From Candidatus Baldrarchaeota archaeon (GTDB taxonomy: Archaea > Asgardarchaeota > Baldrarchaeia > Baldrarchaeales > DXJG01), in assembly GCA_019056805.1 (NCBI GenBank), contig DXJG01000002.1:580203-612202 (forward strand): a DNA stretch of 32,000 nt, read 5' to 3'. The notes under the pieces are model-generated. The model saw only the letters and a program-made list of their open reading frames with translations, ran no database searches and was not told where the DNA came from. Both the position numbers and the translations under genes were made by a program. The first letter of the stretch is position 1; the number at the start of each line of letters is the position of its first letter. Shown one piece after another: positions 25,031 through 31,779 of this stretch.

Positions 25031-25786
25031 TCAGAATCCTTTCTCATGTAGGATTTTGATTGCTTCAATGGCAACTTTTATTTCTGTGTCAATGGCTTTT
25101 TTCACAATTTCTGCGTGGTCTCCAAGTTCTTGGCCAGGTTCAAACTCCAGTTTCTTTGTTCCTTTTACGAGGTTTCCGTCAACAGCCAATATTGCTCCGG
25201 CTTTTAATCCCCTTAAATGGGAAACTATGAATATTGCGGAACATTCTCCCTCTACGGACAAAACTCTAGCTTTCCTCCACTCATTAACATATTGCATTTC
25301 AGCATAATATGCAGGACTAGTTGCCACTACACCTCGATAATATTTAACACCAAGGGTTTCAGCAGCTTCTATCAAAGCATTTACAACATCTAAATCCGGA
25401 ACCGCTGGAAAATCTGGTGGAACATATGCATGCGTTGTTCCTTCACGTCTAACAGCGCCGGTCGGAATTATAAGATCTCCAACTTCTATATCTGGTTGTA
25501 AGGCACCTGTTGTACCTACACGAATCAGAATTTTAGCTCCTATATTTGCAAGTTCTTCCACAGCTATTGAAGCCGCATTTCCTCCGATCCCCGTTGATGT
25601 TGTTGAGATTGGGATTCCTGAAACAGTGCCAGTATATGTTATGAATTCCCTGAAGTCAGCAACTAGACGGTACTCATCAAACTTCTCTGCCACTATTTTA
25701 GATCGCTTAGGATCACCTGGTAAAAGTACATATTTAGCAACGTCACCTACACCGCACATAATATGAGGTTGTATTTTCTTTTTCAA
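25031..25786 (-). CDS. Nucleoside phosphorylase (NP-I, Udp/DeoD-like) with atypical EGE motif
   Basis: VLLPGDPKR, REFITYTG, STGIGG, IAVEEL, IRVGTTGAL, AVRREGTT, VEGECSA, AVDGN; TTG start with SD GGAGGG. Confidence 0.88.
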   Translation of the reverse strand: MKKKIQPHIMCGVGDVAKYVLLPGDPKRSKIVAEKFDEYRLVADFREFITYTGTVSGIPISTTSTGIGGNAASIAVEELANIGAKILIRVGTTGALQPDIEVGDLIIPTGAVRREGTTHAYVPPDFPAVPDLDVVNALIEAAETLGVKYYRGVVATSPAYYAEMQYVNEWRKARVLSVEGECSAIFIVSHLRGLKAGAILAVDGNLVKGTKKLEFEPGQELGDHAEIVKKAIDTEIKVAIEAIKILHEKGF

Positions 25787-25906: not shown

Positions 25907-26863
25907 TTGATAATCCCAGAGGAAATCAGAAAGATAGCAGATGATATTTGTACAATGCGGATTCGTGGTGCTACACCTATCGCTAAGGCTGCTGTTGAAG
26001 GATTAAAAATTGCTGCTCAAAAAACTCCAGCAAAAACTGTTCAAGAATTTTACAAAAAGTTTAAGGAAATCGGAAAATTTTTACAAGCTACCCGACCATC
26101 TGCAGTATCTTTACCCAACGGCATAAGATATGTGCTGTATAGAGTTAAAAAGGCTGTTGAAGAAGGACTATCGCTTGATCAAGTTAAATCTATCGCAATA
26201 AACGTATCTAATGAATTTATAGAGAAGACAAATACTGCTAAAGACAAAATTGGAGAAATAGGAGCAAAATTAATTAAAGATGGAGACACTATTCTCACCC
26301 ACTGTAATAGTAGTATCGCGTTAAGCATAATAAAAACAGCACATCGACAAGGAAAAGAAATAAAGGTTTATGCAACAGAGACAAGACCTAGATACCAAGG
26401 ACATTTAACAATAAAAGAATTAAATGAAAGTGGTATACCTACGACCTTAATTGTCGATTCTGCAGCTGGATTTTTCATGAAAGAAGTTGACAAAGTTATT
26501 GTAGGAGCAGACACCATACTTGTGGACGGCACGCTTATCTACAAAATAGGACTGTTTTTAATAGCATTAGCAGCAAGAAAGTACAATGTGCCTTTATATG
26601 TAGGTGCAGAAACCTACAAGTTCTGTCCAGAAAGCGTTACCGGAGAAATAATAGAAATAGAGGAGAGAGACTCTGCTGAAATAATTGATCCAGAGAAAAT
26701 AAAAGATCTAAAATACGTAACTGTTCGAAACCCGGCATTTGACTACATTCCACCTGAATACATAAAATATATCATAACAGAGAAGGGAATAATTCCACCA
26801 CACGCTGCAATCATAGTGCTTAGAGAAGAATACGGATGGCCGATTTCAACCCCACAAATATAA
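25907..26863 (+). CDS. Ribose-1,5-bisphosphate isomerase-like (eIF2B alpha/beta/delta family)
   Basis: MRIRGA, TRPSAVSL, LTHCNSS (catalytic Cys), ETRPRYQG, VGAD (catalytic Asp), AETYKF, NPAFD; TTG start with SD GAGGTG. Confidence 0.85.
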   Translation: MIIPEEIRKIADDICTMRIRGATPIAKAAVEGLKIAAQKTPAKTVQEFYKKFKEIGKFLQATRPSAVSLPNGIRYVLYRVKKAVEEGLSLDQVKSIAINVSNEFIEKTNTAKDKIGEIGAKLIKDGDTILTHCNSSIALSIIKTAHRQGKEIKVYATETRPRYQGHLTIKELNESGIPTTLIVDSAAGFFMKEVDKVIVGADTILVDGTLIYKIGLFLIALAARKYNVPLYVGAETYKFCPESVTGEIIEIEERDSAEIIDPEKIKDLKYVTVRNPAFDYIPPEYIKYIITEKGIIPPHAAIIVLREEYGWPISTPQI

Positions 26864-26946: not shown

Positions 26947-28254
26947 CTATGTGCCAACAATGTTGGTTATGAATGAGGGAAAGATCGAAGTGAAAGATTT
27001 CCATTCTTCCAGAAATTCTCCAAAAGTTAATTTTCTTCTTATAGCTTCTATTACACCATACAAGTAGGATGAGGCATATTTTACTGAAACTATTTGCCCA
27101 CCAATTACTCGTTCTTTTTCATCCAAAATTATATGCATCTTAGGATTAAATTTCTCAATAATTGGAATATGTCCCTTAAAATCTTTTTCAAAATTAATAG
27201 AAACAGTTTTTGCCTTAATATTAACTTCTTTTGCTGTTTCAATACTATGACCAGCAACCCCAACTTCTAAGCCGAAAACCTTTTGAATTTGAACCCTAAG
27301 AAAGCCTTTCACTTCAAGTTTTCCACCAACAGCGTTAACACCAGCCAGTTTCCCGGTTTGAGCAGCTATACTCCCAACTGGCATGTATAGATAATTACCG
27401 GAAATAAAATCTGGAACCTCAGCAACGTCTCCAGCCGCAAAAATACCCTCAACATTAGTTTTAGCCCTACCATTAATCAGTATTCCAACCTTACCAATTT
27501 TAACTCCAATAGACTTCGCTAAATCGACATTAGGCAAAACACCAGCCGTAAGAATAACTAGATCTGTTTTAATTTTTTCCCCGTCAATATCTACGCTTTC
27601 AACGCTGCCATTTCCATAAATCTCGTTAACTGTTCTTCCCGTTAAAAGCTTAACACCAAAATGTTCCACTCTCTTCTCAATAATCCGGCTCAAATCTTCT
27701 TCCAATAATCTCCATAGAATTCTAGGCATCTTTTCGACAATTAAAGGTTTTAAACCAATTTTTCGAAGTTTTTCAGCAACTTCCAATCCCACAAAACCAG
27801 CACCAACAATAACAACTTGTTTTGCTCTCTGAATTTTTTGTTTAATCTTTAAAGCATCTTTTAGACTCCAAATAGTAAAAACATTCTCCAAATTTACACC
27901 TGGAATTCTTGGTCTAATAGGTACACCACCACTTGCAAAAATCAATGAATCGAATCCAAGGGCTTCACGACGATTATTAGAACTAATAATAAGCTCTCTC
28001 TTTTCTCCGTTTATTTTTTCACATTTCCAACCAATTCTCAAATTAATATTTTCCTTACTTAGTAACTCGTCTTGATAAATTAAAATGTCTTTTACATCTA
28101 TTTTTCCAGCGATCAAAGAAGGTAAACTAGGTTTTCTATATGGATATTCAAGAGATATAATCGTAATAACTACCTCTTTATTGGAATTTCTAGCTGACAA
28201 CGCAGCATTAATACCTGCAACACCACCCCCTACAATTACAAGATTTTTAATCAT
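26947..28254 (-). CDS. FAD/NAD(P)-dependent pyridine nucleotide-disulfide oxidoreductase family protein lacking a redox Cys
   Basis: IVGGGVAG, FASGG, IVGAGFVGLE, TNVEGIFAAGDVAE; YPYRKPSL where NADH oxidase/CoADR have the Cys. ATG 28254 follows AGGTG (track 28263). Confidence 0.88.
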   Translation of the reverse strand: MIKNLVIVGGGVAGINAALSARNSNKEVVITIISLEYPYRKPSLPSLIAGKIDVKDILIYQDELLSKENINLRIGWKCEKINGEKRELIISSNNRREALGFDSLIFASGGVPIRPRIPGVNLENVFTIWSLKDALKIKQKIQRAKQVVIVGAGFVGLEVAEKLRKIGLKPLIVEKMPRILWRLLEEDLSRIIEKRVEHFGVKLLTGRTVNEIYGNGSVESVDIDGEKIKTDLVILTAGVLPNVDLAKSIGVKIGKVGILINGRAKTNVEGIFAAGDVAEVPDFISGNYLYMPVGSIAAQTGKLAGVNAVGGKLEVKGFLRVQIQKVFGLEVGVAGHSIETAKEVNIKAKTVSINFEKDFKGHIPIIEKFNPKMHIILDEKERVIGGQIVSVKYASSYLYGVIEAIRRKLTFGEFLEEWKSFTSIFPSFITNIVGT

Positions 28255-28431
28255 ACCGCACACCTTAACAACTAGCCTACTACCAACGAACTAAATAATA
28301 ATATGCAAATGCTACGACTAAGAACATTCTTCTAATACCTTTCTTTTTAATGTTTTAAATTTATTTACAGCCCCTAACTCTGTAGCTGTTTATTGGGAAG
28401 ATATTTCATGTAAGTTCAAAATAAAACTCGA

Positions 28432-28490: not shown

Positions 28491-29522
28491 GTGAACTATA
28501 TGACCTATATTGATCTTTATGGGAAAGATCTTATAACTACGCAAGAATGGACAATAGAAGAGCTAGATTTCACATTAGAATTTGCAAAAGAATTGAAAAG
28601 ACGGTTCTATGCTAGAGATTTGCCGGAACTTTTGAAAAACAAAACTTTCTTTATGCTCTTCTATAACACTTCAACAAGAACTAGAGCGTCTTTTGAAGCT
28701 GCTATGACATTTCTAGGTGGACATGCACAGTTCGTAGATGTATCTACTACTAGAATCGGTGAGGGCGAAGTTATAAAAGATACTGCAAAAATGTATGAAC
28801 GTTATGGGCATGGACTTGGAATAAGAGTTTTAGAATCGGCCGTAGACTACGTGTATGGAAGAGGTAATGCTGTAATAAGAGAATACGCTAAACATGCAAA
28901 AATACCAGTCATAAACATGGCTGATGACATGTATCATCCTTGTCAAGGACTAGCAGATATCATGACAGTGCAAGAAAAGTTTCCAAAATACGAAAAGAAA
29001 AAATACGTGATAATGTGGGCATATTCCAACAAAATAAGATCTTGGTGCAGTGTACAAGAAGAAGCTCTAATAATGACAAGATATGGATTAGATGTGGTAA
29101 TAGCCAATCCACCAGAATTTGATTTAGACCCGAATATCTATGAAATATGCAGAAAAAACGCTGAAGAATCTGGAGGAAGCTTCGAAATAAGCAACGATTA
29201 CAAAGAAGCTTTAGAGGGAGCTCACATAGTTTTTCCAAGAAGCTGGGCAAGCCATCAATGTGTTATGATGGGAATAAACAAGTTCGGGAAAGAAAACGAG
29301 CTGGCTCTCCATGAAAAATATAGAGATTGGATGTTAACACGAGAATTAGTAGATCTCATGGATAAAAACAGCATAATAATGCATGTTCTACCAGTTTTCA
29401 GAGGAGAAGAAGCAACAGACGAAGTAATGGACGGCCCCCACTCAGTAATCTATGATCAAGCAGAAAATCGACTTCACGTACAAATGGCTGTACTAGCACT
29501 AGTAATGGGCGGCAGAACCTAA
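28491..29522 (+). CDS. Carbamoyltransferase, YgeW/N-acetylornithine (knotted)-like clade
   Basis: STRTRASFE, GLGIR, HPCQGLAD, WAYS, VFPRSW, MHVLP, QAENRLH; alternative start ATG 28500. Confidence 0.85.
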   Translation: MNYMTYIDLYGKDLITTQEWTIEELDFTLEFAKELKRRFYARDLPELLKNKTFFMLFYNTSTRTRASFEAAMTFLGGHAQFVDVSTTRIGEGEVIKDTAKMYERYGHGLGIRVLESAVDYVYGRGNAVIREYAKHAKIPVINMADDMYHPCQGLADIMTVQEKFPKYEKKKYVIMWAYSNKIRSWCSVQEEALIMTRYGLDVVIANPPEFDLDPNIYEICRKNAEESGGSFEISNDYKEALEGAHIVFPRSWASHQCVMMGINKFGKENELALHEKYRDWMLTRELVDLMDKNSIIMHVLPVFRGEEATDEVMDGPHSVIYDQAENRLHVQMAVLALVMGGRT

Positions 29523-29602
29523 CAAATCACCATTTCAATTTATTTATCCTTACTAATTTATCTGAAACCTTATTTAAATTAAGAAAGCTGTTATTCACAT
29601 AT

Positions 29603-30880
29603 TTGGTGATAAAAGTGAGTTTTGTAATAAAATTAAAATGTTCTCGATGCAGTGAAGAATATTCTCCAGAAGAAAAAGTTACAATGTGCCGTACACCTGG
29701 GTGCAAAGGTCTCGGAAGACTAGATATATACTATAACTATGATAAAATTTCTAAACAACTATCAAAATCAAAATTGGAGCAAAGAAAACCGGGAGTGTGG
29801 AAATATAAAGAACTACTTCCAATTAAAGATGGAACCAGAATAATTACATTGGGAGAGGGTAACACACCTCTCATAAAAGTGAAGAGATTAGGTGAAAAAC
29901 TTGGATTAAAAAATTTATACGTTAAGAATGAAATCGGAAACCCCACTGGAAGCTTCAAAGATAGACCAATGGTTATAGGCGTTACAAAAGCCTTGGAATT
30001 CGGAGTAAAGACTACCGTGACAGCAAGCAGTGGGAACGCAGCTGCAAGTCTTGCAGCATACTCAGCAAAAGCAGGTCTAGAATGTTACGCCTTTGTTCCA
30101 GAAACAGCACCCATAAGCAAAATAGCACAACTTTTTCTCTACGGTGCTAAAGTTGCACGCTTTAAAGGTTTAGAAAAAGGAGAGGATCCCACAGTAAAAA
30201 TGCTAATTGAGGCAAGTGAAAAATATGGATGGTACCCTTGCCCCAGCTTTGGACCCTTTAACCCATACCAAGCTGAAGGGGCAAAAACCATGTCCTACGA
30301 GATCATTGAGCAATTCGACTGGAATTCTCCAGATGTAATTTTTGTTCCAGTTGGTGGAGGCGGACTTTTAGCTGGAAACTGGAAAGGATTCAAAGAATTT
30401 TACGAACTAGGATTCGTAAAAAATCTTCCAAGAATTATTGCCGTGCAGCCCGAAGGTTGCGCCCCATTAATTAGAGCTTTTAAGAAAGGTGAAGATCCAC
30501 TTAACATAAGTAGGTGGGAGAGACCGAAAACTGTTGCAGGAGGACTTTCAGATCCTTACCCATGGGATGGAGATGCTGCACTCAAAAGCATTAGAGAATC
30601 AAATGGAGGTGGTGTTGCAGTTTCAGACAAAGAAATTCTCGAAGCACAAAAACTATTAGCAAAATATGAAGGCATATTTGCTGAGCCTTCAGGTGTAGCA
30701 TCGCTTGCTGGACTTATAAAAATGCTAAATGAAAACAAAATCGATAAAGATGAAACAATAGTAGTCGAAATCACAGGCAGCGGGTTCAAAGACATTGATA
30801 TAGTGATTAAACAGTTTAAACTACCACCAGCAATAGAACCAAACATAAAAGAACTAGAAAAAACTCTATTTTCTTCTTAG
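29603..30880 (+). CDS. Threonine-synthase-like fold-type II PLP enzyme with N-terminal Zn ribbon
   Basis: CSRC...CRTPGC, TLGEGNTPL, NPTGSFKDR (PLP Lys), ASSGNAAAS, VPVGGGG, EPSG, TGSGFK; likely start GTG 29615 after GGTGAT. Confidence 0.85.
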   Translation: MVIKVSFVIKLKCSRCSEEYSPEEKVTMCRTPGCKGLGRLDIYYNYDKISKQLSKSKLEQRKPGVWKYKELLPIKDGTRIITLGEGNTPLIKVKRLGEKLGLKNLYVKNEIGNPTGSFKDRPMVIGVTKALEFGVKTTVTASSGNAAASLAAYSAKAGLECYAFVPETAPISKIAQLFLYGAKVARFKGLEKGEDPTVKMLIEASEKYGWYPCPSFGPFNPYQAEGAKTMSYEIIEQFDWNSPDVIFVPVGGGGLLAGNWKGFKEFYELGFVKNLPRIIAVQPEGCAPLIRAFKKGEDPLNISRWERPKTVAGGLSDPYPWDGDAALKSIRESNGGGVAVSDKEILEAQKLLAKYEGIFAEPSGVASLAGLIKMLNENKIDKDETIVVEITGSGFKDIDIVIKQFKLPPAIEPNIKELEKTLFSS

Positions 30881-30941: not shown

Positions 30942-31451
30942 TTGTCTACAAAAGAATACATGATAATTGCCATCGATGCATGTACATTAATTTACTTAGC
31001 GAAGGCAGGACTGTTAGACTTTCTAAAAAGACTACCTTACAAATACATTATTGATAAAGAGGTTTATAATGAAGCAGTAATTAAAGGTATGGAAGAAAGA
31101 TACCCTGATGCATACCTACTAGAATACTTTATTAAAAAACAAAAAATAATAGAAATAGTCGGAGTAAATATATCAAAAGAAATTGATTATTTTGTTGGAG
31201 AAGGAGAAGCAAGCACGTACATGTTATCAGTGGAGAAAAATGCCATAGCGGTCACTTCCGATAGAGTAGCATATAAAAAGATGTTTAGACGTAACGCAAA
31301 AGTCGTACAAACAGATTTAATGTTTCTAAATGCTTATTTCAAGAAACTTATCAGCAAAAGAGAACTATTGGATGCATTAAACCGGCTATTAGCAGTTGGA
31401 GGTACAACTCCAGAACGTATTACATTCATACTTGAAAAAATTGGTGAATAA
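30942..31451 (+). CDS. PIN-domain protein (DUF3368/VapC-like), putative toxin
   Basis: IAIDACTLIYLAKAGLLDFL, VYNEAV, GEGEAS, VTSD; alternative start ATG 30960. Confidence 0.8.
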   Translation: MSTKEYMIIAIDACTLIYLAKAGLLDFLKRLPYKYIIDKEVYNEAVIKGMEERYPDAYLLEYFIKKQKIIEIVGVNISKEIDYFVGEGEASTYMLSVEKNAIAVTSDRVAYKKMFRRNAKVVQTDLMFLNAYFKKLISKRELLDALNRLLAVGGTTPERITFILEKIGE

Positions 31452-31452
31452 A

Positions 31453-31779
31453 ATGAAAAAAAGTAGGTTGATCTCAACAAGGCTAGAAGAAAAAGATGCA
31501 AAAATCCTGGAAGAAATAGCTCAAGAAGAAAATATCGATAAAGCAACACTAATCAGAAAATGGATTCTATCAAAAATTACAGAACATAAACTAGAAAAAG
31601 CAGCAGAAAAATACCAAAAAGGACTAATAAGCATAGAAGAAGGAGCAAAAATGGCAAACACAACCATATGGAAATTCATGGAATACATACGTGAAAAAAA
31701 CATATGGCCACCAATCCAAACCAAAGAAGAACTAGAAAAAGAACTAAAACACACCAAAAAACTACTAGAACCAAAGTAA
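31453..31779 (+). CDS. UPF0175-family protein (RHH-like N-terminus + HTH), putative antitoxin
   Basis: ISTRL...LEEIAQEENIDKATLIRKWI...KYQKGLISIEEGAKMANTTIWKFMEYI; ATG 31453 follows GGTGA, 1 bp after the PIN stop (track start 31396). Confidence 0.8.
   Translation: MKKSRLISTRLEEKDAKILEEIAQEENIDKATLIRKWILSKITEHKLEKAAEKYQKGLISIEEGAKMANTTIWKFMEYIREKNIWPPIQTKEELEKELKHTKKLLEPK

Follow-up and report, generated by a model that had tools for sequence, protein, structure and literature searches.

The closest solved relatives of the protein described here are the class I threonine synthases (ThrC), represented by those of Aquifex aeolicus (2ZSJ), Thermus thermophilus (1UIM/1V7C) and Bacillus subtilis (6CGQ). 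There is precedent for recruitment of this scaffold to other purposes: cysteate synthase (TIGR03844, Methanosarcinales) and the CapA-type enzymes (9K3C), which have a similar overall fold, use a phosphorylated substrate, O-phosphoserine. The subject of this study is a ThrC-like gene at positions 29603-30880 on the forward strand of a 32,000-nucleotide stretch of DNA (the window) from a Candidatus Baldrarchaeota archaeon (GCA_019056805.1). The window is the terminal 32 kb of a 612-kb contig (DXJG01000002.1), in a genome of 1.92 Mb with 34% G+C and an estimated completeness of 91%. Our preferred reading, to which we give a probability of roughly 0.58, is that the gene encodes a pyridoxal 5'-phosphate (PLP) lyase derived from threonine synthase that would carry out the end step of an archaeal reductive purine degradation, replacing the bacterial enzyme YgeX.

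In the bacterial reductive uric-acid (2,8-dioxopurine/yanthine) pathway, urate first undergoes reduction to 2,8-dioxopurine, which YgfK or the PreA-type UacX then dearomatises; the rings are opened by SsnA and HyuA to give 2,3-diureidopropionate; the ureido groups are removed by YgeW, in a phosphorolysis coupled through carbamate kinase to ATP formation, and then by YgeY; and in the last step YgeX, a fold-type-II PLP enzyme and 2,3-diaminopropionate ammonia-lyase, forms pyruvate (PMC12507026; PMC12990295; bioRxiv 10.1101/2025.04.24.650524). SsnA is the most robust marker of uricolytic clusters according to Li et al., and UacX of C. difficile is of the PreA type (PMC12507026). The papers on the pathway intermediates concern bacteria only and feature no ThrC-like enzyme, and literature searches yielded neither an archaeal version of the pathway nor a characterized member of the clade studied here. 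YgeX and the ThrC-like enzyme are both fold-type-II PLP enzymes clustered with SsnA, a carbamoyltransferase and carbamate kinase, and pyruvate and ammonia are the proposed products of the archaeal protein. The latter, however, belongs to another branch of the fold and is not an orthologue, scoring 32.8 bits against the YgeX profile NF006058, whose cut-off is 276. The archaeal clusters also contain two carbamoyltransferases related to ornithine carbamoyltransferase (OTC), whereas the bacterial pathway employs YgeW and the M20 hydrolase YgeY, and they often feature redox enzymes of the aldehyde:ferredoxin oxidoreductase (AOR) or F420 type where bacteria have XdhD/YgfK.

The remodelled active site and its clade

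The region 29603-30880 (+) holds a maximal open reading frame (ORF) of 425 amino acids (aa), whose translation, profile matches, alignments and AlphaFold2 (AF2) model mark it as a ThrC-like fold-type-II PLP enzyme. PALP is its sole Pfam match, and its nearest relatives carry the label Bathyarchaeia. The top structural matches of the AF2 model (pLDDT 91, pTM 0.91) are class I ThrCs (2zsj, 6nmx, 2d1f and 1v7c), with TM scores of about 0.85; CapA2 (9k3c) is also among the matches at 0.77, and dehydratases and racemases rank behind the class I ThrCs at about 0.6. HMMER alignments to the solved ThrCs of Aquifex, Bacillus, Thermus and Mycobacterium returned E-values of 1e-62 to 1e-74 and identities of 34-40%, with few gaps around the motifs. 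Identity to the Aquifex (2zsj, E 2e-74), Thermus (1uim) and Bacillus (6cgq) enzymes lies between 35 and 40%. The SFKDR lysine motif, the PLP-binding Asn and a C-terminal TG(S/H)GLKD are common to class I ThrCs and the focal protein.

The substrate phosphate is bound in Thermus ThrC by the Thr of ASTGNT, the Asn/Ser of NSxNP, the Arg of NPxR and the Asn of GNAGN, and it is here that the focal protein differs. The PLP Schiff-base lysine, Lys119, lies in GSFKDR (29948-29965, +) and is present in 80 of 80 orthologues. Within the same translated segment, 29948-30043, which reads GSFKDR...ASSGNAA, the loop ASSGNAA (30023-30043, +) aligns in place of ASTGNT(S/A), the two Thr having become Ser and Ala. 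Alignment and orthologue conservation both define a family signature, WYPCPSFGPFNPYQAEG (30230-30280, +), with a three-residue insertion after which (G)PFNPYQAEG stands opposite the (N)SVNPYR(I/L)EG of ThrC; Gly217 occupies the position of the phosphate-binding Asn and Gln223 that of the phosphate-binding Arg. Further along, the PLP-phosphate glycine loop VPVGGGGL (30344-30367, +) replaces PVGNAGN, GNAGN giving way to G(A/G)GxL, and the substrate-phosphate Asn is lost. Finally, a family-specific acidic and aromatic loop, AGGLSDPYPWDGD (30536-30574, +), with the pattern G-L-x-D-P-x-P-W-D-G-D, is found in place of the canonical A(T/S)AIRIGNP.

These changes are fixed among the 80 species orthologues: Ala146 is present in 100%, Gly217 in 95% and Gln223 in 97% (the remainder having His, never Arg), while in the AGGLSDPYPWDGD loop Asp317, Trp321 and Asp322 stand at 100% and Asp324 at 99%. 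The third motif is more variable, G-(A/S/G)-(G/A)-x-L. Taken across the focal protein and its orthologues, the residues of the ThrC phosphate site read Ser/Ala, Gly/Pro, Gln and Gly/Leu. An earlier note on this DNA had listed ASSGNAAAS and VPVGGGGL and had given the replacements of the phosphate ligands as Ala, Pro, Gln and Leu; our alignments agree except for the Pro, Gly217 being the residue opposite the first Asn of NSVNP. Polar and aromatic side chains under strict conservation (Ser215, Asn220, Tyr222, Gln223, Asp317, Trp321 and Asp322) line the former phosphate pocket, and judging from this conservation the pocket has been rebuilt in the clade, not merely degraded.

The focal protein passes the NCBIfam cut-offs for threonine synthase, EC 4.2.3.1 (PRK08197, 365.1 versus 303; TIGR00260, 229.3 versus 167.1), which is why pipelines name the gene thrC, as they do in the public records of its relatives. 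Scores against other members of the fold fall well below their thresholds: 82.6 versus 324.9 for cysteate synthase (TIGR03844), an enzyme found in a different genomic context, 104 versus 331 for the best of the Ser/Thr dehydratase and serine racemase family (PRK08246), and 57 versus 350 for SbnA. Resemblance to the dehydratases is confined to the glycine loop and an A-x-G-L motif, with a structural TMq of about 0.6. A tree was built from 150 representatives, taken at 50% identity out of 1.8 billion proteins, together with paralogues from the same genome. The 26 leaves with Gln223 and the Trp-Asp signature group as a single clade (support 0.998) that includes no sequence lacking the signature and is nested in a broader ThrC-like radiation also devoid of the Arg. 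The ThrC-like gene belongs to a clade of its own and is not the housekeeping ThrC. Many ThrC-like representatives are about 610-630 aa long and carry an additional C-terminal domain of about 200 aa.

The threonine pathway of the focal genome is consistent with this separation. Within the 91% complete assembly, homoserine dehydrogenase (PF00742) had no match, the best score for homoserine kinase (TIGR00191) was 51 bits against a cut-off of 168, leaving no thrB above cut-off, and the search for a canonical ThrC elsewhere in the genome, which the earlier note had proposed, found none. With neither homoserine dehydrogenase nor homoserine kinase, there would be no supply of O-phosphohomoserine. The sole other ThrC homologue above cut-off (PRK05638, 456 versus 421; C9:55084-56052 region, -) is a 494-aa protein with a C-terminal winged-helix fusion, whose SFRDR sequence contains no PLP lysine; its annotation as an enzyme is probably mistaken, a pseudoenzyme that senses a ligand or a regulator of transcription being more likely. 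An Asgard copy of this paralogue reads SFIDR.

Other genomes contain both genes. A Hadarchaeum genome encodes a canonical ThrC (374 bits to TIGR00260; ASTGNT, NPFR and GNCAN) directly adjoining homoserine dehydrogenase and carries the ThrC-like gene elsewhere, and one Bathyarchaeon genome likewise has a canonical ThrC and a ThrC-like gene. In a Desulfurococcus and an Asgard genome, the ThrC-like gene is present and homoserine dehydrogenase was not found. ThrC-like and housekeeping ThrC proteins are therefore not mutually exclusive and fall into separate clades, and so do not behave as orthologues. The automatic name is probably wrong, as had been suspected from the motifs of this one protein; the replacement of the phosphate site throughout the clade, the lack of homoserine dehydrogenase and kinase, and the coexistence with canonical ThrC in other genomes all point that way.

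Genomic context in archaea and in the focal genome

To describe the neighbourhood, 80 species loci were fetched and their ORFs clustered without prior labels, then named by Pfam and NCBIfam; the count of neighbours within 10 kb used the 49 loci that had 5 kb or more on each flank. A special carbamoyltransferase, carbamate kinase or SsnA-like amidohydrolase lies within 10 kb of the ThrC-like gene in 43 of these 49, which come from Bathyarchaeia, Asgard, Hadarchaeia and Desulfurococcales. The carbamoyltransferase, present in 55 of 81 loci, comprises two sister subfamilies. Recurrent neighbours include carbamate kinase, SsnA-like amidohydrolases, a hydantoinase-like enzyme, a PreA/UacX-like reductase, an LLM F420 oxidoreductase, xanthine dehydrogenase (XDH) subunits, adenine deaminase, an IMPDH/GMP-reductase-like gene and AORs with ferredoxins, as well as Bmp-type ABC transporters annotated as nucleoside-binding. 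Three look-ups of contigs encoding other relatives give the same gene picture. A purine context is preferred because of the XDH subunits, adenine deaminase, the IMPDH/GMP-reductase-like gene and SsnA, and because UacX, too, is of the PreA type. Pyrimidine catabolism, which the PreA-like and hydantoinase-like genes might also suggest, was considered less likely, beta-alanine being no substrate for this fold.

Several loci show variations on this arrangement. A divergent CysK/CysM-like enzyme of about 350 aa, barely over the cysKM cut-off, often lies immediately upstream of the ThrC-like gene. At 13 loci (12 Asgard and one 'uncultured archaeon') the ThrC-like gene is flanked by a 220-aa protein (5-bp gap) and a GlmS-like amidotransferase/SIS protein (75-bp gap), with two carbamoyltransferases, two amidohydrolases, ThiS and an AOR located 3-8 kb downstream. 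The module also occurs in an apparently bacterial metagenome-assembled genome (MAG), in a record labelled Candidatus Acidoferrum sp., where it consists of XdhC-like, LLM F420 oxidoreductase, SsnA-like, ThrC-like, carbamoyltransferase and carbamate kinase genes.

In the window, a carbamoyltransferase of archaeal subfamily B (28491-29522, +) ends 80 bp 5' of the ThrC-like gene on the same strand. By tree, it falls in the subfamily whose members usually sit next to the ThrC-like gene, within a dedicated archaeal clade whose sister is the OTC-like gene of this same genome, and it is likely the catabolic partner of the ThrC-like enzyme. Alignment to the OTC of P. furiosus shows that STRTR and HPCQ are kept, HVLP replaces HCLP and there is no DxxxSMG. 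The protein scores under every NCBIfam cut-off and is nearer to OTC and AOTC (206 and 181 bits) than to YgeW (134). It was judged to be neither an ordinary OTC nor orthologous to YgeW, on account of the sub-cut-off scores and the missing DxxxSMG and HCLP; further OTC-like and ATCase-like genes, separate from this one, are present in the genome.

Across 301 genomes of the phylum, family-level matches were tallied manually, so that the counts are approximate, and related genomes are not independent observations. The ThrC-like family is found in about 109 genomes and the carbamoyltransferase family in 110, with both in about 89 and neither in about 171; two large families of the phylum (68 and 29 genomes) have neither gene. 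Both are also absent from three congeners of the focal organism and one further genome of the same order, where SsnA/deaminase-like matches number one, against three in the focal genome, by a profile that is not specific enough for a count across the phylum, as it also picks up a housekeeping deaminase-like paralogue (about 510 bits). The closest homologues of the window's carbamoyltransferase and ThrC-like genes (588 and 690 bits) belong to another family of the phylum. This, together with the absence from congeners, suggests that transfer brought in the two genes jointly; the region shows no unusual G+C content.

Candidates for the upstream half of the pathway were recognized by profile matches elsewhere in the focal genome, at C11:15.7-27.4 kb. 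The order there is AOR, ferredoxin, SsnA, a second TRZ/ATZ-type amidohydrolase, a PreA-like reductase and two more ferredoxin-AOR pairs, and the SsnA protein exceeds the NCBIfam equivalog cut-off for that enzyme (455.6 versus 444). XDH is not present in this cluster, which holds three tungsten-type AORs; AOR-family enzymes may substitute for a molybdenum purine reductase in many of the archaeal clusters. Six carrier genomes, the focal one among them, yielded no YgeX orthologue above cut-off.

Proposed role and competing explanations

The archaeal clusters hold analogues of all the bacterial steps except YgeX, and the ThrC-like protein is their conserved PLP enzyme; both observations lead us to read it as the terminal lyase. 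Purines would be reduced by PreA/UacX-like or F420-dependent reductases, along with XDH or tungsten AOR-type enzymes, and SsnA-type amidohydrolases would open the rings to yield 2,3-diureidopropionate. The dedicated carbamoyltransferase or carbamoyltransferases would then phosphorolyse the ureido groups, freeing the alpha-amino group and producing carbamoyl phosphate, from which carbamate kinase, where present, would gain ATP. The ThrC-like enzyme is expected to bind 2,3-diaminopropionate, or possibly the mono-ureido compound albizziin, as an external aldimine on Lys119-PLP and to eliminate the 3-substituent from the beta position, with the released aminoacrylate hydrolysing to pyruvate and ammonia. 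By analogy to the bacterial pathway, its activity is most likely that of a diaminopropionate ammonia-lyase, and it would represent a non-orthologous replacement of YgeX. In threonine synthase, released phosphate reportedly steers the reaction to threonine instead of the 2-oxoacid (Murakawa et al., 2011); a ThrC scaffold that has lost its phosphate site should, for this reason, act as a lyase or deaminase. The earlier suggestion of a PLP lyase or synthase acting on a substrate that carries no phosphate, with 2,3-diaminopropionate among the candidates, finds backing in the clade-wide replacement of the phosphate site and the purine-catabolic neighbours, and from these we infer the substrate, the type of reaction and the chemistry of the archaeal pathway.

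A number of points weigh against this assignment. The function of all clade members is so far predicted from sequence, and the focal protein does exceed curated threonine synthase cut-offs. In the focal genome the module is minimal and sits 1.1 kb from the contig end; only one such carbamoyltransferase was found, and carbamate kinase was not found in the 91% complete assembly. The downstream partners of the ThrC-like gene may be unassembled. Approximately 20 genomes have a ThrC-like gene and no detectable carbamoyltransferase, many of them being incomplete MAGs. The CysK-like PLP enzyme, present in about 14 loci, could take the lyase role, and the immediate neighbours in Asgard are the 220-aa protein and the GlmS-like enzyme, the purine genes being 3-8 kb off. 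R (D) intermediates were proposed in one bacterial study, and ThrC-type enzymes normally act on L-amino acids. Lastly, diaminopropionate is shorter than phosphohomoserine, and the conserved, remodelled pocket might bind a larger group, such as a ureido group.

In an unlikely, though serious, alternative the ThrC-like enzyme would serve as catabolic lyase of the same pathway by a new chemistry, cleaving a ureido amino acid directly. It might, for example, eliminate urea or carbamate from the beta position of albizziin (2-amino-3-ureidopropionate), or act on another ureide-derived amino acid. The phosphate pocket would then have been rebuilt for the neutral ureido group, in keeping with its strictly conserved polar and aromatic residues, and simple geometry suggests that a ureido group on C3 would reach about as far as the O-P of phosphohomoserine. 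Many genomes, that of the focal organism included, have only one carbamoyltransferase subfamily, and a single phosphorolysis would leave a mono-ureido acid. Most long-flanked loci, however, have two carbamoyltransferases and often carbamate kinase, which argues that both carbamoyl groups are removed; urea, moreover, is a poor leaving group, and no urease was seen in the clusters. A related and decidedly doubtful proposal is that the clade cleaves a ureido amino acid such as albizziin, a chemistry not known for the ThrC fold, and that enzyme and carbamoyltransferase together constitute a minimal carbamoyl-salvage module; the cell would then make pyrimidines and arginine solely with carbamoyl phosphate that this module obtains from scavenged purines. 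It arises because neither carbamate kinase nor the large subunit of carbamoyl-phosphate synthetase was found in the focal genome at 91% completeness, despite its OTC-like and ATCase-like genes. Carbamoyl phosphate could thus come from the window's carbamoyltransferase, or else the genes not found are in a part of the genome that was not assembled, given that the window stops at a contig end.

It is improbable that the protein is a beta-replacement synthase (for cysteine, cysteate or diaminopropionate) or a general Ser/Thr deaminase that is only loosely tied to the purine genes. Cysteate synthase is numbered among the relatives of ThrC, CapA2 is a structural match, a CysK-like enzyme is adjacent in some loci, and GGGGL and A-x-G-L resemble dehydratase and racemase motifs. 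Yet the profile scores given above lie far under the cut-offs for cysteate synthase, the dehydratases and SbnA, the known ThrC-derived synthases take phosphorylated donors for which the site is gone here, and the genome already contains two Ser/Thr dehydratase-like and two CysK/M-like genes. The tight, phylum-spanning adjacency to the carbamoyltransferase also argues for a pathway-specific role. Very little probability attaches to the reading conveyed by the automatic annotation, that of a genuine threonine synthase with a diverged phosphate site. In its favour are the profile scores, the identity and structural match to solved ThrCs, the retention of the PLP lysine and of most cofactor-binding residues, and the apparent status of the protein, from motif comparison, as the sole catalytically competent ThrC homologue of the focal genome. 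Against it, the Arg, Asn and Thr of all solved class I ThrCs are replaced in every member, no homoserine dehydrogenase or kinase is at hand to supply substrate, and the gene coexists with canonical ThrC in other genomes and resides in catabolic clusters of four archaeal lineages.

The gene within its window and what it may mean

The true start of the focal ORF is likely GTG 29606 or GTG 29615, as opposed to TTG 29603; the former is favoured by the 424-aa length of the database version of the protein, and the latter because its product, MSFV..., matches the relatives. A TATA-box-like TTATTTAAAT (29570-29579, +), read from the sequence some 27-36 nt 5' of the GTG starts, may be the gene's own promoter and imply a leaderless transcript. 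Scans for sigma-70 promoters and terminators gave no signal above shuffled sequences, by models that are not applicable to archaea. Near the N-terminus, a Cys-rich zinc-ribbon-like motif (Cys13, Cys16, Cys29 and Cys34; 29639-29704, +) is evident from sequence and orthologue conservation, with the first three Cys at about 95% among the 80 orthologues and the fourth in only about 11. The ribbon was rejected as a family-specific trait, since CxxC...CxxC ribbons are also found in canonical archaeal ThrCs.

Upstream of the pair, a nucleoside phosphorylase (PNP_UDP_1; 25031-25786, -) forms part of nucleoside-catabolic surroundings. It is accompanied by an IF-2B-family pentose-phosphate isomerase (25907-26863, +) of the ribose-1,5-bisphosphate or methylthioribose-1-phosphate isomerase type, orthologues of which occur near the ThrC-like gene at other loci too, and by a pyridine-nucleotide-disulfide oxidoreductase resembling CoA-disulfide reductase or NADH oxidase (26947-28263, -), divergent from the carbamoyltransferase. 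Downstream, two small overlapping ORFs (30942-31451 and 31396-31779, +) may be a toxin-antitoxin pair just before the contig end; one, of 169 aa, has no family match and the other is UPF0175/RelB-like, of antitoxin type.

These results suggest that thousands of archaeal genes, in Bathyarchaeia, Asgard, Hadarchaeia and Desulfurococcales, are probably misnamed threonine synthase, which inflates the predicted amino-acid prototrophy of lineages that are mostly uncultured. If the proposed role is correct, the reductive uric-acid pathway, which was described in 2025 and to date from bacteria alone, would extend to archaea, in a form assembled from other parts: two OTC-derived carbamoyltransferases, a ThrC-derived lyase and redox enzymes of the tungsten AOR or F420 type. 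The enzyme would also offer a natural example of a synthase turned lyase through loss of its product-assisted phosphate site, and nucleobases would constitute a substrate yielding both ATP and nitrogen for abundant archaea of sediments.

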